From Myxococcales bacterium (GTDB lineage: Bacteria; Myxococcota_A; Bradymonadia; UBA7976; UBA1532): DNA of 64,000 nucleotides. Shown one piece after another: positions 2,699 through 22,086 of this stretch. Below the pieces are notes generated by a model. That model was given only the letters and a program-made list of their open reading frames with translations. It was not told the DNA's origin and made no database searches. The position numbers were made by a program, and so were the translations under genes. Position 1 is the first letter of the stretch; every line of letters starts with the position of its first letter. The DNA lies in the NCBI GenBank assembly GCA_020633465.1, contig JACKDN010000006.1, positions 111,047 to 175,046 of the forward strand, given 5' to 3'.

Positions 2699-2991
2699 AA
2701 CGAGATGCCGCCGAACATGAACAACACCATCGCGATGACCAGCAGCCAGAGGACCGCGCTGATCCAGCCGCCCGACTTCTTGGCGCCGCCCCCGCTGGCC
2801 ACCTTCTGGAAGCCGCCGCGCATGCCGGTGAGGAAGCCGCCGCCGCCGTCGAACTCGACCTTCTCGGGCAGGCCCTCGCCCGGCGCCTCGTTGCGCCGCA
2901 CCGCGTCGTGCGCCTCGACCCGCTCGGCCCGCTTGGCGGCGGTGACCTGCGCGGCCTTGCTCTTCACGCGCTTCTTCTTCTTGCTGCTCAT
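2695..2991 (-). CDS. small basic membrane protein (hypothetical)
   Basis: MSSKKKKRVKSKAAQ... with a C-terminal TM helix. 4-nt overlap with the downstream gene. Confidence 0.5.
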
Positions 2992-3950
2992 GGCGACGTC
3001 CGACCCAGCCGTACGCTCCAGTCGACCCGCGGGCAGTGCCGCGTCCGCCAGACGGCCAGGGCCTGGCGCGTGCTGTAGCGCGGCCGGAAGCCGGTCGCCC
3101 GCGCGAAGCGGGCGCAGGACATGGCCGCGGTCTCGTGGAACCAACCGGGATCAGCGTAGCGCGTCGGCAGCCCGTGCGCGCGCAGCAAGGCCGCCAGGGC
3201 CGTGCGCATCAGCCACGGGGGCAGCCGCACCAGCCGCTTCTCGAGGATGCCGGCCACCACCTCGAAGTCGATGGGCTCGGGCCCGGCCACGTTGAAGGCG
3301 CCGCGCAGCTCCGGATGCGCCGCCGCCACCAGCAGCGCGTCGGCCGCGTCGTGCACGTGGACGAACTGCACCGATCGCCCCGCCTCGGCCGGCCCCAGCA
3401 GCCAGGGCAGATCGAGCACCGCGTCGATGGGCCGCCCCCGGTCGGGGCCCAGGATGGCCGGCAGCCGCATGCACACCAGCTCGCGGCTGGGCTGCTCCTT
3501 CCAGATCTGCCCCCACATCCGCTCGGTCCGCAGCTTGGCGGCCAGCGGGGGCGAGCGCTGCGCCTCGACCGCGCGCAGGGGGTCGTCCTCGCCGCGCAGC
3601 CCCTCGCCGGGCGCGTACACCCAGTCCCGGCTGACCACCACCAGGCGGCGCGTCTCGGCCAGCGCCGTCGCCTCCAGCAGGCGGCGCGTGACCGCCGGCT
3701 CGTCCCGCGCGCCGCGCGCCGCGACGCCGTCGGCGTACTCGAGGTGCAGCACGACGTCGACCATGTCGCACACCAGCAGGTCGGCCAGATCGACCGTGCG
3801 CAGATCGGCCTGCACGAAGTGCACGGGGCCCAGCAGGCGGGGGACGTCGCGGTCGATGCCGAAGACGCGCCGGAAGGGGTTCTCGTGCATCAGGCGCTCG
3901 GCGATCGCCTGGCCCAGGGGGCCCGCGAAGCCGGTGATGAGCAGGTTCAC
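2988..3950 (-). CDS. NAD-dependent epimerase/dehydratase family protein
   Basis: N-terminal VNLLITGFAGPLGQAIAERL Rossmann motif, ~320 aa. GTG start overlaps upstream stop (GTGA). Confidence 0.7.
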   Translation of the reverse strand: MNLLITGFAGPLGQAIAERLMHENPFRRVFGIDRDVPRLLGPVHFVQADLRTVDLADLLVCDMVDVVLHLEYADGVAARGARDEPAVTRRLLEATALAETRRLVVVSRDWVYAPGEGLRGEDDPLRAVEAQRSPPLAAKLRTERMWGQIWKEQPSRELVCMRLPAILGPDRGRPIDAVLDLPWLLGPAEAGRSVQFVHVHDAADALLVAAAHPELRGAFNVAGPEPIDFEVVAGILEKRLVRLPPWLMRTALAALLRAHGLPTRYADPGWFHETAAMSCARFARATGFRPRYSTRQALAVWRTRHCPRVDWSVRLGRTSP

Positions 3951-4861
3951 GCCGGTGGCCTCTCGTAGGTCAGCTCGCGCCGATGATCGACGAAGCCGAG
4001 CGTCGCGTACAGGTGCACGGCCGGGGCGTTGGCGGCGTCCACCGCCAGCTCGACCGTGTGGAAGCCCTGCTGCGCCAGCGCGTGCAGCGCGGCGACGGTC
4101 AAGAGGCGGCCCAGCCCCCTGCCCTGCGCGTCCGGCCGCACCTGCACCGCGTGCAGCACGCCGACGCCGGCGTGAAAGGGCAGCGTCTGGAAGGCGCCGA
4201 GCAGCGCGTCGTCGGCCTCGAGCACCACCGTGCGGCCGCCGGGCGCCGACGCGGTCTGCAGAAGCTCGTCGGGCTCGAGGGGGGCGAAGCCGAAGGCCCC
4301 CGCGTGGGCCGCGTTGTGCAGGGCGGCCAGCGCGGCGGCCTCGGCGGGCAGCCGGGCGTCGCGCAGCTGCGTGCCCGCGGGGGGCGCGCCCGCGGGCGGG
4401 GGCACGCCGGCGCGCCGCATGACCCGGGTGGTCTGCACCAAGACGTAGCCGCGCCGCGCCAGCAGGGCGCTCAGCCGCGCCGCCTCGGCGTCGTCCAGCA
4501 CGGTGCGCAGGGCCACCTCGCCGGGCGCGTCGAGCGCCTCGACCGCGTCCAGCAGCCGCCGCCCGACCCCCCGACCGCGCGCCGCCGGCGCGACGGCGAC
4601 GCGGAAGCCGCGCACCGGAAAGGGCCGATCGGCCACCGCGTGGCGGCTGGACAGCAGGGCCCCGGTCAGGCGCCCGTCGTCGTCCTCGCACAGCAGGAAG
4701 GCGCGCCCGCCCTCGCGATCGATCTGCGCGACGAAGGCCGCGAAGGCGTCGTCCTCGGGCCCCGCGCCCTCGGCGTCGGCCGGCTGCGTGGCGCGCAGCA
4801 GGGCGGCCACCCGGGGCAGATCGGCGTCGGTCGCGGGTCGGAGGACGGCCACGGGGGGCAT
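3947..4861 (-). CDS. GNAT family N-acetyltransferase (tandem GNAT domains, MshD-like)
   Basis: Two acetyl-CoA binding motifs (VAPAARGRGVGRRLL; VRPDAQGRGLGRLL). Confidence 0.8.
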   Translation of the reverse strand: MPPVAVLRPATDADLPRVAALLRATQPADAEGAGPEDDAFAAFVAQIDREGGRAFLLCEDDDGRLTGALLSSRHAVADRPFPVRGFRVAVAPAARGRGVGRRLLDAVEALDAPGEVALRTVLDDAEAARLSALLARRGYVLVQTTRVMRRAGVPPPAGAPPAGTQLRDARLPAEAAALAALHNAAHAGAFGFAPLEPDELLQTASAPGGRTVVLEADDALLGAFQTLPFHAGVGVLHAVQVRPDAQGRGLGRLLTVAALHALAQQGFHTVELAVDAANAPAVHLYATLGFVDHRRELTYERPPA

Positions 4862-4883: not shown

Positions 4884-5684
4884 TCAATCGAGGCAGCCGC
4901 CGAGGCGCCCGGGGCGGCGACAGAGGCGCCCCGAGCAGCCGTGGCCCTCCAGGCAGCCGCTGACGCAGCCGGTCAGATCGCTCCAGCCGAGCACCCCGTC
5001 GTCCTGCTCGACGCAGTACCGCGCGCTCAGGCCCTCGCAGACGGCGGCGCCGCGCTGCCGGCAGCCCCCGGGCCGCACGCAGCCCTGCCCGTCGAGGCAG
5101 CTCGAACCCTCGGGGCACATCTCGGGCACCGACCACACGAAGTCGATGCCCTGGGCCACGCAGCGCTGCAGCAGGCCGTCGGTGCACTTCGGCCCCGCGT
5201 CGAGGTCGCACAGGCGCCCGACGTCCTGCGCCGCGGGACAGCCGCGGCCGTGCACGCAGGTCAGCTGCGCCGGACACCGCTGCGTGAAGGTCCAGGGGCC
5301 GCCGGCCTCGCAGGTGAAGACGTCCTGGCCGACGCAGGCGATCGAGCCGTCGGCGCCGCATCGCGGCAGCGCCACGCAGCCGCGCCCGATGGCGCACTGG
5401 GTGCCGGCCTCGCAGGCGCCGCGGTCGATGTAGCGCCCGCCCGCGTAGCCGTCCTGGCAGTACAGGGCGTGATCGCCGTCGCAGCTCCAGGTGCCGGGCT
5501 GATCGCAGGGGGCCGCGGTCGAGGTGTGCGGGGGTGCCGGAGGGTCGGGATCGTCGGCCTTGGGATCGGGCCGGGTGTCGGTGGCGGGGGGCGGGGCCGC
5601 GCCGCCGTCGCTGGGGGGCGCGTCGGCGGGAGGCTCACAGGCCCAGAGCGCGAAGACGATGAACCAGCAACGTTCGAGCTTCAT
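4884..5684 (-). CDS. Cys-rich secreted lipoprotein (hypothetical)
   Basis: Signal/lipobox MKLERCWFIVFALWAC followed by >25 Cys in EGF-like spacing. Confidence 0.6.
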   Translation of the reverse strand: MKLERCWFIVFALWACEPPADAPPSDGGAAPPPATDTRPDPKADDPDPPAPPHTSTAAPCDQPGTWSCDGDHALYCQDGYAGGRYIDRGACEAGTQCAIGRGCVALPRCGADGSIACVGQDVFTCEAGGPWTFTQRCPAQLTCVHGRGCPAAQDVGRLCDLDAGPKCTDGLLQRCVAQGIDFVWSVPEMCPEGSSCLDGQGCVRPGGCRQRGAAVCEGLSARYCVEQDDGVLGWSDLTGCVSGCLEGHGCSGRLCRRPGRLGGCLD

Positions 5685-5813
5685 CGTTCGACCCTCCCCG
5701 AAAACGATACGGCGAAGGCGCCCTTCGATTTGAGTTTTCTCGGCCGTTGGTGGGCGCCGACCCCGCAACATCCCGGGTTGACGCCCCCCCGAACCCGGAG
5801 GACACTCCCCGGC

Positions 5814-6476
5814 GTGGAGTGGCTGGAACCCGAGGAAGAGGCGCCGGACTTCGTCGACGCGGAGCGTCTGTTCGGCGTGCTGGAGGCCGTGCGCGACGGG
5901 CCCAACCTGTACGAGTGCGCCACCGACAAGTTCCCGGTGCCCGACGAGACGCCCGTGCCCTTCGACGAGCCCGCCTACGACTGGCTGGTGGCCGAGGAGT
6001 TCATCGACGTGCCGCTCGAGCTGCGCAACGCGATCGAGCGCTTCCGGCACCTCGAAGAGAACAGCGAGCGCACGCGCGAGACGCTGACCGACGTGTACCG
6101 GCGGCTGCGCACGCTGGCGGTGCAGCTGCGGGCCGCCGACAAGGAGCTCGAGCGCGGGGGCTTCCTGAAGTCGAAGCAGCAGAAGTGGGGCGAGCAGACC
6201 CGGCGCGACGAGCTCGCGACGCAGATGGACGATCTGACGCTGACGCGCCGGCGCCTGGAGAGCGACCTCGAGAAGGCCGGCACGCTGCTGCGCGACCTGC
6301 TCGACCGCATCTACCGCGATCAGGGGCTGCGCGAGGCGCACTGGATCTGGGGCCGCCCGGTGCGCATCACACACCACGGCCGCTTCCTGCTCGACTACCT
6401 GGCCGACATGAACCCGGCCAACTTCCGCGGCCGCTCGCTGGCCGAGATCATCGAGATCGGCCCGTCGTTGGCTTGA
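5814..6476 (+). CDS. hypothetical protein
   Basis: Strong GC3 bias, protein-like composition, GTG start with GGAGGA upstream. No family recognised. Confidence 0.5.
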   Translation: MEWLEPEEEAPDFVDAERLFGVLEAVRDGPNLYECATDKFPVPDETPVPFDEPAYDWLVAEEFIDVPLELRNAIERFRHLEENSERTRETLTDVYRRLRTLAVQLRAADKELERGGFLKSKQQKWGEQTRRDELATQMDDLTLTRRRLESDLEKAGTLLRDLLDRIYRDQGLREAHWIWGRPVRITHHGRFLLDYLADMNPANFRGRSLAEIIEIGPSLA

Positions 6477-13251: not shown

Positions 13252-14058
13252 TCAGTGCTTGTGCACGTTGGCGACGCGCAGGAGCAACTCGCGGTCGACC
13301 TGGGCGTGCTGGCCGCGGGCGGCGGCTTTGAGGGCGGCGGTGGCGATGCGATCGACGTCGCGGAGGCGACCGCCGCAGGCCTCGTGGAGGAGGGCGAGGG
13401 CGTCGGAGCTGAAGAGCATCCGCTCGGTGCCGGCGAGGCGGAGACGGTGGCGCACGTAGGCGGTGGTGTCGCCGGGCTCCGGCTCGGGCAGCCGCAGCCG
13501 GGTGTGGATCCGGCTCCAGAGCGAACGGTTGTGCCGGACGGTCATCCGGTCCCACAGATCGGGCAAGCCGGCGAGCACGAGCGTTAGGAGCGGGCGCGAG
13601 TCCCACTCGTGGTTGGCGAGGATGTGCAGGTGATCGAGGACGTCCTGGTGCAGCAGGTGCGCCTCGTCGATCACGAACACGGGGTGCAGCTGCTCGCAGC
13701 TCAGCTCGTTGACGTACTCGCCGAGCGCGTTGAACACACCGGCGGCGGTCGCCTTCGGGTTCAGTCCGATCGCTCGACAGATGTGGCGGTAGAAGTCGCG
13801 TCGTCCGAGGGTCGCGTTGTGGCAGTAGGTGAGGCGCACAGGGCGGTTGCTCAGCCGGTGACGCAGCACCCGCAGAACGCAGCTCTTGCCCTGGCCGGCC
13901 TCACCGACGATCAGGATGCCGGTCTGCCGCTCCTCGATCGCCTCGACGACCTCGTCCACGGCCGCTTCCTTGGCGGCCGTGAGCCAGAGATCCTGGTCGG
14001 CGATGCTCTTGCCGAAGGGCGCGAGGCGCAGCTCGAAGTGGTCGAGCCAGTACATCAT
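13252..14058 (-). CDS. transposition helper AAA ATPase (TniB/ExeA-like)
   Basis: Walker A ILIVGEAGQGKS, Walker B VFVIDEAH. ATG overlaps tnpA stop (ATGA). Confidence 0.8.
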   Translation of the reverse strand: MMYWLDHFELRLAPFGKSIADQDLWLTAAKEAAVDEVVEAIEERQTGILIVGEAGQGKSCVLRVLRHRLSNRPVRLTYCHNATLGRRDFYRHICRAIGLNPKATAAGVFNALGEYVNELSCEQLHPVFVIDEAHLLHQDVLDHLHILANHEWDSRPLLTLVLAGLPDLWDRMTVRHNRSLWSRIHTRLRLPEPEPGDTTAYVRHRLRLAGTERMLFSSDALALLHEACGGRLRDVDRIATAALKAAARGQHAQVDRELLLRVANVHKH

Positions 14059-15400
14059 GACGCCTCCCGCGACGAGCGCCCGAAGACGCGGTCGAGCAGG
14101 ACGGTCGCCGGATCGAAGGCCACGGTGTCGATGCCGGGCTTCGGCTGGAAGCCCTTGTGCCGCTCGCGCCGCTTGCCGTTGGCGACGGGATCCACGTAGC
14201 GCAGCGGGTGTCGCTTCTCTTCGTGGACCAGGACCGGTGGCGCCTGGGGCTCGAGCAGGCAACGCTCGATGCGCACCATGCGGCCAGCGAGGAAGCGGAG
14301 GTCGGTCTCCCAGTCGACGCCACCGACGCTCAGCGTTCCGTCGCGCCGGACGCGGCGTCGGCCGTGCGCGGTCAGCGCCGTCTGCAGCTCGGCCTCGTCG
14401 AGCGCGCGCAGCGTGCGCTCGGCCCACACCTCGTTCGGGGCGCTCCCCATGAGTCCGCCGTGGGGCGCGCGGTGGTAGTGGGCGTCGAGCCACGCGAGCA
14501 GGCGCACCTGCACGTCGTGCAGTCGCCCGACCTGGCCGATGTGGTCGAGGCAGCCCTCGCGGAGCGTTCGCCAGAAACGCTCCATCTTGCCGCGCGCCTG
14601 GGGATCGTAGGGGCGCGCGTGAACCAGGGAGACGCGCAGTCGGCTGCACGCGGTGGCGAGCATGTCGCCCGTGTAGGTGGGGCCGTTGTCGAGGTAGAGC
14701 GTTCCCGGCGCGCCGAAGCGGCGCAGGGCGCGGCTGAACAGCTCCAGCATCTCGATCTCGCGCTCGGTGCTGCAGGCCATCAGCGCGACGACGTAGCGGG
14801 ACGCGTCGTCGAGGATGGCGTGGATGCGCAGCGGTGTGCGCTGACCGTCGAGGGTCAGGATCGGGCCGTGGCAGACGTCGGCGTGCCACAGTTGGCCGGC
14901 GCGCTCCGCCTGCCAGCGGCGACGCGCCGCGGGATCGTACTGGCGCCGGCGGGGCAGGCGCGGGAGGCCAGCGTCGCGGAACAGCCGACGGACGGTCGAC
15001 GCCGACACCTGCTCGTCGTCGAGGCGCCCGTCGAGCACGAGGGTCCGCAGGATCAGCTCGGCCGAGGCGCTGGGGTGCTCGCGCCGGATGTCGCAGAGCA
15101 GCTGGCGCTGCGCTGCGCCGCGGTCAGGTCGCGGGCGTGGCCGGCGTCGCTGCGGCGGCGCGGCCGCAGCGCGTCGAGGCCGCCGCGCTTGTAGGCGTAG
15201 AACCAACGCTCCATCGTCGAGACGCCGTAGGTCCGCGTGGTGGAGGCGCCGGGCGGGCGGCGCCGGATGCGGCTCATGCGGCGCAGCTCCGCGCGCAGCT
15301 CGCCGTGGCGGAACTCCTGGGTGACGAGCGGTCCGATGATCTGCGCACGGAAGTGTGCGACGGCCTCCGCGTGGTCGCGCGGGGCAAGCTCCAGGGTCAT
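14055..15400 (-). pseudogene. DDE integrase-core (rve) transposase, interrupted by a 5-nt (AGCGC) duplication near 15115
   Basis: N-terminus MTLELAPRDHAEAVAHF...DLTAAQR joins QLLCDIRREH... in another frame. D..D..E core (HADVCHG...LYLDNGPTY...MERFWRTL). GGAGG RBS. Confidence 0.75.
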
Positions 15401-15570
15401 GTCGACCTCCGTTCTTGGGCGCCTTCCAGCAGGCGCCAGGGAGGTTTCGCAGGGTTCGGCGAGCGCCGGCAGGATCCTACCTGGTGGGCTCCTTCCGTCC
15501 GCTGGGCACAGGGGGTGGCCATCACCGAGGTTGCAGGGACGCCGCGAAGATCCGGGCCTGGATGCCGCGC

Positions 15571-15599
15571 CCCGGGACTCTAAGTCCTCCGAAAACACT
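15571..15599 (+). repeat. R motif copy A (terminal hairpin motif CCCCGGGACTCTAAGTCCTCCGAAAACACT)
   Basis: GGACT-cta-AGTCC hairpin core. Identical copies at 17897 and 18423, a degenerate one at 18738. Confidence 0.8.
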
Positions 15600-15790
15600 T
15601 AGCTTTCTGGCCGAGGCCGTCGAGCGGCCGCCCGGGGGACGTCCAGACGGCCGTCTTCGGCCGCCGTCGGGCCGCCTTCCGGTGCTGATCGGGGTCAATG
15701 GGCGCCGGCGCGCCGTATTCGGCGCGCACCTCAGCGTATGCGCGGCGGGGCGCGCGGGGGATGGCGGGTTCGGGAGGGCCGGCGGCGGCG

Positions 15791-16888
15791 TCAGCCGTCG
15801 CCGATCACCCTCGGGGGGTCGCCCCACTTGGCCGGCCAGCGCGGCAGGGGGGCGTCGGGCGGGAGGAAGGGGCCGACGATGGGGGCGTCGTCGAAGGCGT
15901 CGTTGATCACCGGCGGGTAGTCGAAGCCGTCGGGCAGGTCGGTCCAGGGGTGCTCTGGGTCGGCGTCGTCGTGGGTGACGGCGGCGCGGCCCCGCTCGAC
16001 GACCTTGGCCACGGCCGCCATCACGGCGCCGGTGCCCTCGCGGCGGGCTTCGTAGGCGGCTTTGAGCAGCTCGTCGGCCAGCGGGCCCATCGCCGAGAAG
16101 GCGGGGCAGCGGCTGCGCTTCACCTCGGCGGGCTCGTACATGGGCGAGATGGCGAGGGCGGCGGGGACGCCGACGAAGTGCTTGTCGGCGTGGTCGGCGA
16201 CGACGTTGTCGAACACCTTCTTGCAGAAGGCGCGGTACCGCTCGGCGGGGTAGCGCTCCCAGCCGGTCAGCGGCGTCAGCTTGACGATCACCTCGCGGTA
16301 GAAGGGCGTGCGGTCGTCGGGGCGGCCCTTGTCGTCCCAGGCCTGGTAGTCGAACCAGAGGCCGCGCGGGCTCGTGCCGTTCAGCAGGTGGTCGACGCAC
16401 TGCAGGCCGGGCCACTGGTTCGGCCTCGGCGTCACGCCGTCTTTTGTGAGGTGTGCGAGGATGTAGGCGAACCAGAACTCCTCGGCCTCGACGTCGAGGA
16501 TGGTGCTCGCGCGGAAGGGGCCGTCCCACACGGGGCCGGACGTCTCGTAGGTCTTGTGCGTCAGGCGCGCGAAGCCGGCCTTCACGTACTGCATGAACGC
16601 GCTGATGGCGCCGGGGCGGTCCGAGCGCAGCAGGCAGTGGAGGTGGTTCGAAGCCACCACGGCGATCGCGACGTCGACGCCGTACCGGATCTGGGCGCGG
16701 CCGATGATGCCCCACATCAGCAGGACGAACAGGCCGCCCTCCTCGGGCGGGACGAAGGCGTAGCGGCCGCGCACGACCCGGCTGCTCACGTGCACCCAGT
16801 GGCCGCGCGGCATGCAGCGGTGGCGGGGGTTGCGCTTCTTGGCGCGGTAGCGGACGCGGCGGCCGAGGCTCTCGTTGAGGGCGGGCAT
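15791..16888 (-). CDS. HuH-Y1 (IS200/RAYT-like) transposase with ~200-aa C-terminal extension of unknown function
   Basis: VVASNHLHCLL (HuH) and FWFAYILAHLTKDGV (catalytic Tyr, RAYT-like YI..NPVKAGLV). GGAGGAG RBS. Confidence 0.7.
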   Translation of the reverse strand: MPALNESLGRRVRYRAKKRNPRHRCMPRGHWVHVSSRVVRGRYAFVPPEEGGLFVLLMWGIIGRAQIRYGVDVAIAVVASNHLHCLLRSDRPGAISAFMQYVKAGFARLTHKTYETSGPVWDGPFRASTILDVEAEEFWFAYILAHLTKDGVTPRPNQWPGLQCVDHLLNGTSPRGLWFDYQAWDDKGRPDDRTPFYREVIVKLTPLTGWERYPAERYRAFCKKVFDNVVADHADKHFVGVPAALAISPMYEPAEVKRSRCPAFSAMGPLADELLKAAYEARREGTGAVMAAVAKVVERGRAAVTHDDADPEHPWTDLPDGFDYPPVINDAFDDAPIVGPFLPPDAPLPRWPAKWGDPPRVIGDG

Positions 16889-17227
16889 GGGTCTCCTCCG
16901 GGCAAATCGGGGGAGATCCATCGGACAGCGGCGGCGCGTGTTGCGCGGCGGCGGTCGATTTCTCGAATTTCGCTCGACGCGGCGGTCGCGGTCACGGGAG
17001 TTCATCCACCCGCGATCAACCGCTCACTCTCCGTCGGCACGAACGCGACGTCAGGCGCGAGCGCTGCTCGTGCACGGCCCGGTCGGCCAGGCGGGCGCCT
17101 CGCGCCCAGCACGCATGCGAAGCGCCGCCTCCGAGCGTCCGGCGCGACCGGTCGTCAGCCGGGCGCGCGCCGGTAGTGCAGGGCGACCGCGCCGTTGCTG
17201 AGCGGCTTCGCCGAGACCAATACGAGC

Positions 17228-17896
17228 CGTCGTGTGCTGGGTGAGTCTGATACCCAATTCTGGCCCCACTTGAGGGCAAACTGATCTCCAGAAATGGCCC
17301 CACCTCGGCCACAACTACCCCGGAGACGTTGGACGGCGTTTCGGGGGACGGAGATGACCAAGGTGGAGCTGTTCGAAGCTATCAGACGCGATCGACACGT
17401 GCAGCAGAAGAGCGTGCGCGAGATCGCCCGGGATCGCGGGATCCATCGAAGGACGGTGAGGCAGGCGCTCGAGAGCGCGGTGCCGCCGGCGCGGAAGCGG
17501 ACCGAGCGGGAGGCGTCGGTGCTGACCGCGGCCATGCGCCAGCTGATCGACGCGTGGCTCGAGGGGGATCGCGAGGCGCCGCGCAAGCAGCGGCACACGG
17601 CGCGGCGGATCTGGCAGCGGCTGCGCTCGGAGCAGGACTTCCGGGGGGCGGAGTCGACGGTGCGGCGCTACGTCGGGCGGCGACGGCGTGAGCTCGGCGC
17701 CGGCCGCAAGGACGTGACCATGATCCTGGTCCACGAGCCCGGGGCGGAGGCCGAGGTGGACTGGTACGAGGCGGCGGTGGACTTCCCGGGCGGCCGCCAG
17801 ACCGTGCAGGTGTTCGCCATGCGCGCCTGCTACAGCGGCCGGGAGTTCCACATGGCGTTCCCCCGAGCCACGCAGCGCGCGTTCCTCGAGGCCCAC
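17228..17896 (+). mobile_element. IS21-family fragment: left end plus istA codons 1-181, truncated by R copy B
   Basis: TGTGCTGGGTGAG... terminus with GGCCCCAC direct repeats. IstA HTH MTKVELFEAIRR...PRKQRHTARRIWQRL...EVDWYEAAV ends abruptly at ..EAHAQA|R. Confidence 0.75.
17354..17896 (+). pseudogene. istA: istA (IS21 transposase) 5' fragment
   Basis: See above. Confidence 0.8.
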
Positions 17897-18422
17897 GCGC
17901 AGGCGCCCCGGGACTCTAAGTCCTCCGAAAACACTCAGCTTTCTGGCCGAGGCCGTCGAGCGGCCGCTCGTGGGCTGGCCAGACGGCCGACTTCGGCCAC
18001 CGTCGGGCCGACTTCGGGTGCTGATCGGGGTCGATGAGCGCGGCGGCGCCGGCTTCGGCGCGCACATGGGCGACGGCGCGGCGGGGCGCGCGGGGGATGG
18101 CGGGTTCGGGAGGGCCGGCGGCGGCGTCAGCCGTCGCCGATCACCCTCGGGGGGTCGCCCCACTTGGCCGGCCAGTTCGGCAGCGGCGCGTCGGGCGGGA
18201 GGAAGGGGCCGACGATGGGGGCGTCGTCGAAGGCGTCGTTGATCACCGGCGGGTAGTCGAAGCCGTCGGGGAGGTCGGTCCAGGGGTGCTCGGGGTCGGC
18301 GTCGTCGTGGGTGACGGCGGCGCGGCCCTGCTCGACGACCTTGGCCACGGCCGCCATCACGGCGCCGGTGCCCTCGCGGCGGGCTTCGTAGGCGGCCTTT
18401 AGCAGTTCGTCGGCCAGGGCGC
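17897..18422 (+). repeat. partial copy B of element X 3' end (R plus 3' part of the Y1 gene)
   Basis: Encodes orphan Y1 C-terminus LADELLKAAYEARREG...PRVIGDG (ORF 18127..18450). Confidence 0.8.
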
Positions 18423-18766
18423 CCCGGGACTCTAAGTCCTCCGAAAACACTCAGCTTTCTGGCTGAGGCCGTCGAGCGGCCGCCCGGGGGACGTCCAGAC
18501 GGCCACGCTCGGCCCCCGTTGGGCCGCCTTCCGGTGCTGATCGGGCTCGATGGGCGCCGGCGCGCCGGATTCGGCGCGCACCTCGGCGCGACGGCGCGGC
18601 GGGACGCGGGGCGGATGGCGGGTTCGAGAGGGCCGGCGGCGGCGTCAGCCGTCGCCGATCGACCCGGGGTCGCCGCCACTTAGCCGGCCAACGCGGCAGC
18701 GGGCGTCGGCGGGAGGAAGGGGCCGACGATGGGGGCGCCCCGGAACCTGCTCAAGTCCTCCGAAAC
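18423..18766 (+). repeat. partial copy C of element X 3' end (diverged, internally deleted), followed by degenerate R copy D (18738..18766)
   Basis: Alignment to 15571..15895. R_D = CCCCGGAACCTGCTCAAGTCCTCCGAAAC. Confidence 0.7.
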
Positions 18767-19146
18767 GTCGAGGAGCTTGCCGCTGCCGAGGAGCACGCCG
18801 GCCGGGTCGCGTCCTTGAGCGTCTGCACGCTGCTGCAAAGGTCGCCGGCGATGTGGTGGCTGTTGGTCCACGGGAAGCGGGTTCGCGTCGACGACACGAC
18901 GTACTTCGGCTTGGCTTCCAGCTTGACCGCCCACTCGCGGATCGCAGGCGGGGCCTCCTCGTCACCGCGGGCGACCGCCGGCCAGTAGCTCTCCATCATC
19001 TCGTAGGTGACGCGGCCCCACAGCATCGCCCCGCCCTCGTCCATGAGGCGGGTAAAGAAGGCGTGCGTCTCGTCGTCGGCGATGCCCTCTTGGTGGTCGA
19101 CGCATCCGTCGAGGGTGACGTTGAGGCCGAAGGTCAGAAGTCCCAT
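18767..19146 (-). pseudogene. RibD C-terminal-domain/DHFR-family protein, internal frameshift and 3'-truncated at R copy D
   Basis: MGLLTFGLNVTLDG...WPAV...KPKYVVSSTR...NSHHIAGDL..LKDATRPAG/VLLGSGKLLD, then the ORF ends at R_D. Confidence 0.65.
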
Positions 19147-20644: not shown

Positions 20645-21472
20645 GTGACCCTCCGCACCCCCTCGAGCCGTGCGCTTCGCGGGCTCCGGCGCGATCCCCC
20701 CCCTCACCCCCTGAAGCCGCCGACCCTCGCCCTGCCCTGCGCGCCGCGCTGTCGGCGCCCGATCCGGCGATCCGCGCCGCGCGCCCTGCTCGGCCCTGGG
20801 CTGGCAGCGCGACCCGCCGTCGGCCCGTGGCTACGCGCGGCGACGACCGATCCAGCGCCCACCGTGCGCGCCGCCGCGGTCGCCGCGCTGGCCGTCGTGC
20901 GCGACGCGGGCGCGGGCGCCACGCTGGAGGGCCGACTCGACGACGCGCGCGCGCCGCAGCGCGCGGCCGCCGCCCGGGTGCTGGGCTTCCTCCGCCTCGC
21001 GGCGCACGCCCCTGCCCTGCGCGCCGCGCTCGCCACCGACGCCGCCGCCGAGGCCCGCGCCGAGGCGGCGCGGGCCCTCGGTCGCCTCGGCGACGCAGCA
21101 TCGATGCCGCTGCTGATCGAGGCGCTGGCGGCGCCGGTCGCGTGCCTGCGCCACGCCGCCGCTCAGGCGCTGGCGCGGCTGCCCACGGACGAGGCCGCCG
21201 CGGTGCTGCATGGCCGCCTGGACGATCCGGATCCCGAGGTCCGGGCGGCCGCGGCGCGCGGTCTGGCGATCGTCAGCCCGGGCGACGCGCTGGTGCCCCT
21301 GTGCGCCACGCTGGCGAACGACGCCGATCCCGGCGTCCGGGTGACGGCCGCTGTCGCGCTGGGCCAATTGGGTGGGGAGGCCGCCCGCGCGGCCCTGCAG
21401 CGCGCGACCGCCGATCCGCACCCCGAGGTGCGCGATCGCGCGCGGGCCGCGCTGACTCAGTCGCCGCGCTGA
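20645..21472 (+). CDS. HEAT-repeat (PBS lyase-like) protein; N-terminal repeat appears in another frame (possible frameshift near 20780), start uncertain
   Basis: Repeated DPDPEVRAAAARGL / VRVTAAVALGQLG motifs. Confidence 0.5.
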   Translation: MTLRTPSSRALRGLRRDPPPHPLKPPTLALPCAPRCRRPIRRSAPRALLGPGLAARPAVGPWLRAATTDPAPTVRAAAVAALAVVRDAGAGATLEGRLDDARAPQRAAAARVLGFLRLAAHAPALRAALATDAAAEARAEAARALGRLGDAASMPLLIEALAAPVACLRHAAAQALARLPTDEAAAVLHGRLDDPDPEVRAAAARGLAIVSPGDALVPLCATLANDADPGVRVTAAVALGQLGGEAARAALQRATADPHPEVRDRARAALTQSPR

Positions 21473-21612
21473 GCCGGTCAGCCCGCCTGACGCGGTCGCC
21501 GCGCCGCCTCGATCGCCGCGCTGACCCGGTCAGCCCGACCGACGCGGTCGCCGCGCCGCTTCAGTCGCCACGCTGACCCGGCCGCCGCGCTGGCTCAGTC
21601 GCCGCGCTGACG
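21440..21612 (+). repeat. ~55-bp tandem repeat (x2-3) containing a 15-bp perfect palindrome GCTGACCCGGTCAGC; convergent terminator region
   Basis: CAGTCGCCGCGCTGA three times and CCGGTCAGCCCG.C.GACGCGGTCGCCGCGCCGC twice. Both flanking genes end in this motif. Confidence 0.6.
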
Positions 21613-22086
21613 CTTGATCCGGTCGTACTCGAACAGGAACAGCGACGCCCGGCTCAGCAGCTTGCGCATGCCCGGGTGGAACAGGCGGCGCGTCGCCTCG
21701 CGCTCGCTGACCCAGACGTGCCAGACGCCCTCGTGGGGGTGCGGCCCATGCTCGCGGGTGGGCGCGGCGGCGGGCAGCGGCGACCAGTCGTGCACCTGGC
21801 CGGTGAAGAAGACGACGGTCTTGTCGATGGGCCGGCCGGCCCGGCGGTAGTTGTAGTGCACCTGATCGCGGAAGTCCGGCAGCAGCTCGATCTGCGTGAT
21901 GCCCGTCTCCTCGCGCAGCTCCCGCAGGGCGGCGTCGACCTCGGTCTCACCCGCCTCGATGCTGCCCTTGGGGAACTCCCAGGCGGCGTCCGGGTTGCGC
22001 ACCATGACGCTGTGCAGCAGCAGGTACTCCACCCCCGCGTCGGTTCGCCGGAAAGGGATGACCCCGCAGGAGTTCTCGTACAGCAA
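21595..22086 (-). CDS. NUDIX hydrolase
   Basis: NUDIX box GSIEAGETEVDAALRELREETGI. TTG start. Confidence 0.75.
   Translation of the reverse strand: MLYENSCGVIPFRRTDAGVEYLLLHSVMVRNPDAAWEFPKGSIEAGETEVDAALRELREETGITQIELLPDFRDQVHYNYRRAGRPIDKTVVFFTGQVHDWSPLPAAAPTREHGPHPHEGVWHVWVSEREATRRLFHPGMRKLLSRASLFLFEYDRIKRQRGD

Follow-up and report, generated by a model that had tools for sequence, protein, structure and literature searches.

The stretch of DNA analysed here (hereafter the window) covers 64,000 nucleotides of a contig from a Myxococcales bacterium (JACKDN010000006.1; ~73% G+C) and contains, at positions 15791..16888 of the minus strand, a gene whose 365-residue product is probably the transposase of an insertion sequence (IS)-like Y1 HUH element of ~1.49 kb, one that would represent a new RAYT/IS200-like clade and whose 3′ end would be highly active. 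The exact 365-residue product is deposited in GenBank, from a 384-kb contig of a metagenome-assembled genome (MAG), as MCB9536002.1 ('MAG: transposase [Myxococcales bacterium]'). That is, the gene has already been annotated as a transposase, and it is the additional domain of the protein, the clade that this domain defines and the end-anchored, nested copies of the element that appear to be new. No description of the ~160-residue domain, of its clade or of such copies was found in the libraries or the literature searched.

A Y1 HUH enzyme

By its sequence and its predicted structure the 365-residue protein is a genuine Y1/HUH transposase-type enzyme, as the first-pass annotation of the window had proposed for this open reading frame (ORF). 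The Y1 HUH superfamily acts on single-stranded DNA and includes both the TnpA proteins of IS200/IS605 and the RAYT/TnpA_REP proteins. The assignment is based on a profile alignment, on the conservation of individual alignment columns, on an AlphaFold2 model and on the Foldseek matches of that model. The Pfam domain Y1_Tnp (PF01797) recognized the protein with 25.4-25.7 bits, above the gathering cut-off of 23, and was found (E<=0.01) in 104 of 122 family members, no other Pfam domain being detected in the family. The two NCBIfam models scored below their cut-offs: REP_Tyr_transpos (NF047646; cut-off 80) gave 31.3 bits for this protein and 31-57 bits or no score for ten relatives, and transpos_IS200 (NF033573; cut-off 55) gave 12.2 bits. 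No defence or phage family of PADLOC or PHROGs matched, and a profile search of viral contigs yielded no relative of the protein.

The catalytic core extends over residues ~27-165 (16394..16810, minus strand). It includes the HuH motif S80-N-H-L-H84 (16637-16651) and the catalytic tyrosine Y142 (16463-16465), which opens the Tyr box Y142-ILAHLTKDGV and has H146 at the Y+4 position. In the alignment of the 122 family members, H82 and Y142 are each conserved in 121 sequences and H84 in 113, and W159 is invariant; the motifs NHLHCLL and YILAHLTKDGV, which had been noted earlier within residues ~30-165, are thus conserved at their catalytic positions. The residue at Y+4 is H in 78, Q in 27 and N in 15 sequences (one of the three in 120/122), all of which could plausibly act as metal ligands. 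The profile of the 122 members aligned the HuH motif and the tyrosine with those of ISDra2 TnpA, the alignment ending at the catalytic Y132 of the latter, and also with those of Escherichia coli TnpA_REP, where the segment 'YilahgvKEgLVarpedWpG' of the profile was aligned to 'YIYINPVKHGWVKQVSDWPF'. The sequence similarity to RAYT proteins extends through this 'VK.G.V....WP' segment and stops near residue 165, in agreement with the first-pass annotation.

An AlphaFold2 model computed from seven sequences was poor (predicted local distance difference test, pLDDT, 62), and the model based on the 122 sequences was used instead; this had a pLDDT of 86 and a predicted template modelling score (pTM) of 0.84 for the whole chain, residues 21-300 being confident. 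When compared with the PDB by Foldseek, the best match was TnpA_REP (4er8, 161 aligned columns), followed by the transposases of ISDra2, IS608 and IS200, with a probability of 1.00 for 4er8, 2xm3 and 2vjv.

The start codon of the 365-residue form is preceded by GGAGGAG, and every aligned homologue begins at the same position. Together with the length of the GenBank product, this led us to reject a longer form of 404 residues starting at the ATG at 17005, which lacks a ribosome-binding site, is absent from GenBank, and has no aligned homologue that reaches upstream.

Boundaries and ends of the element

The 3′ terminus was located by comparing the copies present in the window. The plus-strand sequence GCGCCCCGGGACTCTAAGTCCTCCGAAAACAC is common to the complete copy (copy A) and to two partial copies (B and C), in which it starts at 15567, 17903 and 18419, respectively; in gene orientation it represents the 3′ terminus of the element, 224 nt past the stop codon. 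The same terminus closes the copies at loci L001, L021 and L006 of relatives, as well as a remnant at locus L024. On the other side, the boundary lies 165 nt upstream of the ATG (at ~17052) and is the same in copy A and in the two copies at L021 (L021_1 and L021_2), which have three different flanks. A 5′ end at ~16995 had been considered and was too short, the comparison with L021 moving the boundary to ~17052. Taken together, the common 3′ terminus and this 5′ boundary give a complete element of ~1486 bp (15567..17052, minus strand), made up of a 5′ untranslated region (UTR) with the left end (16889..17052), the gene, and a 3′ UTR with the right end (15567..15790), of which the terminal module ..GCTAAGTGTTTTCGGAGGACTTAGAGTCCCGGGGCGC ends at 15567 and is common to A, B, C, L001, L021, L006 and L024.

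Neither terminal inverted repeats nor a flanking direct repeat or target duplication was found at the element, including its flanks. A module at the left end, TTCG-N9-AGAGT (~17022-17039), resembles the TTCG-N8-AGAGT of the right end in direct orientation; it is located some way inside the left boundary, and its right-end counterpart 10 nt before the right boundary. The core CTYAGAGT is common to the window, L004 and L011, and is also found in L006 and L002. In all three independent left flanks (..GCTCGCGCCT, ..TGCTCGAG and ..TGCTCGCA) the sequence GCTCG occurs 2-5 nt from the boundary. An exact DNA scan of metagenome contigs with the 3′-end motif gave 0 matches.

The 5′ UTR can form a stem-loop at ~16887-16922 (minus strand), in which ATGG-TCTCC-CCG pairs with CGG-GGAGA-CCAT, covering both the GGAGGAG ribosome-binding site and the start codon. 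At L006 this hairpin is kept by a compensatory change (TCTCC/GGAGA to ACTCC/GGAGT). It resembles the hairpin-type translational control that IS200 exerts over its ribosome-binding site. No Rfam family was detected at gathering score in the window, nor at E<=1 around the element.

Truncated copies and junctions at the 3′ terminus

Copy B (17903..18418, minus strand; 516 bp) and copy C (18419..18737, minus strand; ~319 bp with indels) both lack the 5′ part of the element. That is, copy B consists of the last ~96 codons, the 224-nt 3′ UTR and the exact 3′ terminus, and copy C of the last ~31 codons and the 3′ UTR. The two are arranged head-to-tail, with the 3′ terminus of copy C directly adjoining the 5′ breakpoint of copy B. 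The 5′ breakpoint of copy C in turn adjoins a degenerate, right-end-like stretch (D-like; GTTTCGGAGGACTTGAGCAGGTTCCGGGGCGC; 18738..18775, minus strand), which occupies the junction between a RibD_C gene and copy C, and the 3′ terminus of copy B adjoins a truncated istA gene of the IS21 family. The first-pass annotation had described B and C as re-copies of the C-terminal part of the protein. The last codons are indeed present; neither copy, though, holds the whole extension, and what they share is the 3′ terminus of the element. Their sequences identify B and C as 5′-truncated versions of the entire element that have its 3′ end as their fixed point, and not as re-copies of the domain.

Relative to copy A, copy B is 96.2% identical in the coding part and 90.2% in the UTR, a pattern that is also seen between intact copies, whereas the coding part and the UTR of copy C are equally diverged. 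The better conservation of the coding part indicates that copy B came from another active or functional master copy, and not from decay of A in place. Divergence rises from B through C to the D-like stretch, which fits successive additions beside the 3′ flank. The D-like stretch is absent from the intact RibD_C orthologue at L024, and the junction is a patchwork; the stretch may be a mini-copy or itself part of the patchwork, a natural target mimic in the RibD_C gene having been considered as well.

Duplications that end on the same terminus were found in relatives. L001 carries an exact 49-bp tandem duplicate of the 3′ terminus and L003 a lone 40-bp terminus. At L004, three mini-copies (39, 39 and 29 bp), each with the ending CCCRCGGCG, lie ahead of a copy whose start is at -105. 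A mini-copy begins after the terminus in L023 and is missing from L022, which is 99.9% identical. Arrays are also present at more distant homologues: in L011 (34% identity), units of 54, 49, 45, 33, 33 and 10 bp, all ending ..GTGCTTAGAGTTGAARCCCCAC, follow from ~165 bp downstream, and in L013 (29% identity) downstream units of 35, 23, 12, 22 and 26 bp all end GGAACCATCGG. L027 contains tandem arrays of 49- and 66-bp units at its left boundary (1090-1340), the 49-bp array being exact, and its 99.4%-identical counterpart at L026 (1282-3000) is without them. Both these loci encode the same protein, P0099, whose gene has a 15-nt motif (GTCAGAGGCTTCGGC) on either side, directly oriented on the upstream side and in both orientations on the downstream one. 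Altogether, the copies start at -165, -105 and ~-85 from the ATG, at codon ~270 and at codon ~335, or are mini-copies of 10-66 bp.

The gene and array at L011 are bracketed by a 21-bp direct repeat, ACGCCCATCTCTCG[C/G]GAGTAG (3778-3798 and 5423-5443, 1645 bp apart), the first copy of which is the end of an upstream peptidase gene including its stop codon. This repeat may represent either a long target duplication or a duplication of the attachment-site type.

The terminus is also where homology between loci breaks off. In the pairs L022/L023 (99.9%) and L002/L022 (92%), homology ends exactly at the terminus, and a segment of 3.2 kb that is extra in the window relative to L024 (12377-15566) abuts the 3′ terminus of copy A precisely. 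These independent comparisons (L024, L002/L022 and L022/L023) place the junction on a single phosphodiester bond. L024, which belongs to MAG 2_bin.9, also retains a decayed element (1176-1515) at the site orthologous to copy A. What remains there is 277 bp of internal coding sequence (corresponding to window positions 16461-16185) fused to a 3′ terminus of ~47 bp; deletions have removed the 5′ UTR, the first 142 codons and ~560 bp ahead of that terminus.

A proposed model for events at the right end

In IS608, ISDra2 and TnpA_REP, the Y1 enzyme cuts one strand beside a recognized end and keeps the 5′ phosphate, and the free 3′-OH resolves another intermediate. By analogy, we infer that the two HuH histidines and H146 would hold the metal and that Y142 would form the 5′-phosphotyrosine link. 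The enzyme would presumably nick at the right (3′) terminus, the most active site of the element, and the freed end would be joined to other DNA; cleavage is expected after ..AGAGTCCCGGGGCGC at the right end and on one strand only. The products observed could then be explained if the 3′-OH of the right end often joined partners other than the proper left end. That is, joining to an internal position of another copy would leave a truncated copy stacked behind the resident end (the D-like stretch, C and B), joining to a position few tens of bases back would create a nested mini-copy such as those of 10-66 bp in the relatives, and joining to a distant site would cause a deletion or a new junction starting at the terminus. 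A replicative variant, in which the nick would be followed by limited strand-displacement synthesis and by re-ligation or template switch, would give the same products and would fit the lack of a motif at the internal breakpoints; sequence alone does not permit a choice between this and simple joining.

Several observations weigh against the reading of the element as a mobile IS with a specifically cleaved, highly active end. By inspection, the 5′ breakpoints of the truncated copies show no common motif or consistent microhomology, a pattern more in keeping with sloppy replication than with cleavage at a specific sequence. Three left flanks are too few to define a target of the kind used by IS200/IS605 elements, which insert 3′ of a short specific sequence next to the left end. 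As for the subterminal end hairpins on which the IS200/IS605 model depends, their fold energy is no better than that of shuffled sequences in this 73% GC DNA, and among candidate pairings GGACT/AGTCC is kept at 92% with no covariation and CTRAGT/ACTYAG at 80% with one covarying pair. Nested arrays are clear in L011 and L013, are located upstream of the gene and not downstream in L027, and are reduced to small duplicates or absent in L014, L016, L017, L018 and L020. Moreover, the gene is solitary among housekeeping genes in six distant loci, and a large part of the clade may accordingly consist of resident genes that do not actively move. The role that we propose below for the C-terminal extension is likewise argued by analogy.

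The lack of a breakpoint motif, the combination of one constant and one variable end across the copies, and the anchoring of junctions and deletions on the same end would also be expected from one-ended replicative, rolling-circle-like transposition as in IS91/ISCR and Helitrons, with copying that runs from the constant end to variable stopping points; there would then be no true left end, and truncated copies and nested arrays would be normal products instead of accidents. In those elements, too, one constant end lies downstream of the gene, the other end varies and adjacent rearrangements occur. The IS91 and Helitron enzymes, however, have a Y2 pair of tyrosines, together with a zinc-binding N-terminus in IS91 and a fused helicase in Helitrons, whereas the protein of the window has a single conserved tyrosine, no helicase and no zinc-binding N-terminus. 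Furthermore, the three copies with the same 5′ boundary at different loci argue for a defined left end, and the left-end module resembles that of the right end. We therefore consider one-ended replication unlikely as the element's normal mode, although it is the strongest competitor of the IS-like Y1 element with an active right end.

Mobile and resident members of the clade

The close relatives of the window element are multicopy. MAG 2_bin.9 contains four copies or fragments of the element, three of which are cut off at a contig end, and members of the cluster were found on many short contigs. L021 holds two copies in the same orientation, 660 bp apart (2835-4319 and 4915-6028). These bracket a gene pair of the DUF433/DUF5615 toxin-antitoxin-like type, and may constitute a composite arrangement. 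The identical protein P0099 has one right flank and different left flanks at L026 and L027.

A domesticated, non-mobile RAYT-like host gene, with B, C and the arrays being debris of deletions, slippage and other insertions, would account for the solitary distant homologues, for two of their contexts recurring in a second, separate assembly (L014/L015 and L018/L019), and for copy A occupying an old orthologous site in common with MAG 2_bin.9. It does not easily account for a close subfamily that is multicopy with different flanks, for B and C matching the terminus to the base and B stemming from another functional copy, for the different left flanks of P0099, or for breakpoints located precisely at the terminus in a number of independent comparisons, and for the window element it appears quite improbable. 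The solitary distant genes, the recurring contexts and the P0099 flanks together suggest that the clade may contain both RAYT-like genes that are resident and IS-like lineages, among them that of the window, that actively move.

L018 (3001-5333) contains a 252-residue family member followed immediately by an IS3-type pair (HTH_Tnp_1 and rve genes). This member has probably been truncated by the IS3-type insertion.

The C-terminal extension

Residues 166-326 (15911..16393, minus strand), as judged from profile coverage and from the model, are a separate conserved alpha/beta domain, and match no described family. The pLDDT of the domain is mostly >90 up to residue ~280 and 81-87 up to ~300, so that the check by structure prediction suggested in the first-pass annotation returned a domain that folds confidently together with the core. 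Residues 327-365 (..NDAFDDAPIVGPFLPPDAPLPRWPAKWGDPPRVIGDG; 15794..15910, minus strand) form an acidic, proline-rich tail that is present only in close homologues, has low column occupancy in the broad family and a pLDDT <50 over much of its length, and which alignment occupancy identifies as a recent addition of the subfamily. The subfamily of the window also has a 12-residue insertion (306-317), again with low occupancy in the broad family and lower model confidence.

The earlier statement that the C-terminal ~200 residues match nothing recognizable held in every comparison made. The extension alone gave no Pfam match in eight diverse members at E<=10, and residues 166-365 gave none in NCBIfam, PADLOC or PHROGs, nor in the PDB by sequence profile; by fold, the PDB and BFVD contained no match beyond the core. 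The possibilities that the extension is a degenerate second HUH domain (a pseudo-dimer) or an internal repeat were rejected, the hhalign probabilities being 0.1-5%.

A word-indexed search recovered only six close clusters, whereas an exhaustive profile search retrieved 6139 representatives at E<=0.001, 909 of them at E<=1e-10. The best 150 profile matches are nearly all 296-400 residues long, with alignments that reach profile position ~260-300, and of the 136 representatives of 280-420 residues that were listed, all but one (135) cover >80% of residues 160-326. The domain is thus family-wide, conserved in at least 135 cluster representatives of ~300-370 residues, and not a fusion restricted to this one gene. 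Conserved motifs are WPG (159-161), G176-x-W-x-D, (T/S)PLP (205-208), P253, K-R-S-x-A-P (257-262), an A-Y-R helix (~279) and F-P-x-G-x-F-P-P (318-326), and the domain is rich in conserved arginine and lysine. The homologues are recorded as 'hypothetical protein', 'transposase' or 'REP element-mobilizing transposase RayT', and the named source organisms are MAGs of Myxococcales, Deltaproteobacteria, Bradymonadia and Planctomycetota; a protein-based scan of metagenome contigs detected only four loci, at ~50% identity. On the sequence evidence, the domain defines a large, unnamed clade of ~310-residue RayT-like proteins, so far found mainly in uncultured Myxococcota-like bacteria.

That the extension would stand outside the working fold, as a fused accessory module or an artefact of two genes joined by a lost stop codon, is very improbable: no homologue in sequence or structure ties it to HUH function, but the ORF is continuous and collinear in >120 homologues with identities down to ~24%, the invariant W159 and the WPG motif bridge core and extension, and the confidently modelled part of the chain runs through both.

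In E. coli TnpA_REP, the tyrosine helix is followed by ~35 residues that touch the GTAG cleavage motif and on which both binding and cleavage depend; the final 13 residues have a regulatory role (PMC8266576). The domain of the present protein begins where this tail of TnpA_REP begins and carries conserved arginine and lysine, which makes a role at the DNA ends or in multimer assembly the most likely one. By this analogy the extension might recognize or hold the DNA ends, or assemble the complex, as an enlargement of the short RAYT C-terminal tail, a proposal that we regard as tentative.

Surroundings of the element in the window

L024 is the orthologous locus of this region, with a lipase-like gene, an intact RibD_C gene (186 residues; L024 501-1061), the element remnant and a PIN region. 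In the window the RibD_C (dihydrofolate-reductase-like) gene, on the minus strand, is split, with its last 26 codons (17155-17232) beside the IS21 end and its first ~125 codons (18776-19146) beside copy C; ~105 bp are missing and there is one frameshift near codon 115. In place of the ~105 bp found at L024, the window has the D-like stretch, copies C and B, and the initial ~670 bp of an IS21-family element. This IS21 part (17233-17902, plus strand), an insertion into RibD_C, consists of the left end and ~200 codons from the start of istA, and it stops precisely where the 3′ terminus of copy B lies. None of the ORFs of the adjacent region corresponds to the remainder of the IS21-family element.

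The 3.2-kb segment that is extra in the window encodes an rve-type DDE transposase (14055-15206, minus strand), an AAA_22 ATPase (13252-~14100, minus strand) and a PIN-domain protein (12729-~13010, plus strand). Elsewhere in the window, at 21439-21628, a 52-bp tandem repeat occurs three times (71-81% identity to the first copy), with an overlapping fourth match (63%); it is located in very G+C-rich DNA and is unrelated to the element.

Comparison with other Y1 elements

RAYT/TnpA_REP proteins (E. coli YafM, PDB 4ER8; NF047646) are like the element's protein in the HuH motif, the tyrosine and the 'VK.G.V....WP' segment, and provide the best fold match; a RAYT gene is also solitary with short flanking repeats, as are the distant members of the clade. 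The protein of the window differs, though, in having Y-x3-H instead of Y-x3-NP and 365 instead of ~165 residues, and its subfamily is multicopy whereas RAYT genes are single-copy. Moreover, the repeats of the clade are direct, nested tandem copies on the 3′ side of the gene and not dispersed, inverted pairs of repetitive extragenic palindromic (REP) sequences. No dispersed end motif was found in the 64-kb window, which holds one full and two partial copies and in which the 3-4 matches are all local.

With the IS200/IS605 family (IS608, ISDra2), the element shares the Y1 HUH fold, the lack of inverted repeats and of a target duplication, and similar, directly oriented modules close to its two ends, of which the right one is situated ~10 nt before the terminus, comparable to the hairpins of IS608. 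In contrast, its transposase is 2.5 times longer with Y-x3-H rather than Y-x3-Q, there is no tnpB, and the end hairpins are candidates only. To our knowledge, frequent 5′-truncated, stacked copies have not been described for IS200/IS605.

Quentin et al. (2018) divided TnpAY1 proteins into 12 subclasses, with tyrosine motifs Y-x3-Q, Y-x3-NP or Y-x4-Q (PMC6006769). The long forms among them are subclass 2.1/TIRYT, with a Bac_DnaA_C/HTH domain, and subclass 2.3, with core insertions and a distal domain, the motif YVDLNP and a median length of 325 residues (PMC6006769). Like the present family, both combine a Y1 domain with a sizeable conserved addition at the C-terminus and lack canonical REPs. 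A known domain already fused to IS200/RAYT proteins, which the first-pass annotation had named as the finding that would overturn its view of the extension, was not encountered: no Bac_DnaA_C/HTH match occurs in the 122 members, and the element, unlike those of subclass 2.1/TIRYT, is without terminal inverted repeats. Subclass 2.3 is set apart by motifs and description only and not by its distal domain, its YVDLNP motif and its 55-residue beta3-alphaC insertion being absent here. With Y-x3-H, no HTH match and no core insertion, the family fits none of the 12 TnpAY1 subclasses, the comparison with 2.3 being by description only.

Replitrons, which are eukaryotic, likewise combine a Y1 HUH domain with an adjacent second domain and have one 'fuzzy' end and copy-and-paste movement (PMC10288648). 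They differ in that theirs is a CRESS-Rep-related enzyme and in having short direct terminal repeats, and a relation in sequence is not expected.

Significance

Y1 HUH enzymes are the simplest known machines for cutting and rejoining single-stranded DNA; they serve as protein-DNA tagging tools and drive the TnpB-carrying IS200/IS605 elements. A well-folded domain of ~160 residues widens the architecture of this superfamily and provides a defined target for structural and biochemical work.

A more far-reaching possibility, which we hold to be doubtful, is that the clade represents a new kind of prokaryotic HUH element, in which a RayT-like Y1 enzyme would nick a fixed end and drive replication-coupled copying of variable length. 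If so, 5′-truncated daughters, nested 'stutter' arrays and end-anchored rearrangements would arise without a helicase or a second tyrosine, as a bacterial counterpart, at the DNA level, of the 5′ truncation of long interspersed nuclear element (LINE)-type elements or of Helitron-type one-ended transposition. The additional domain would in that case either couple the process to the replication machinery or deal with the second strand. The recurring nested copies hint at an activity, either duplication of DNA locally or copying from one end, of which we found no description for IS200/IS605 or RAYT systems; if real, it would give bacterial genomes a further, new way of acquiring small tandem repeats and rearrangement breakpoints.

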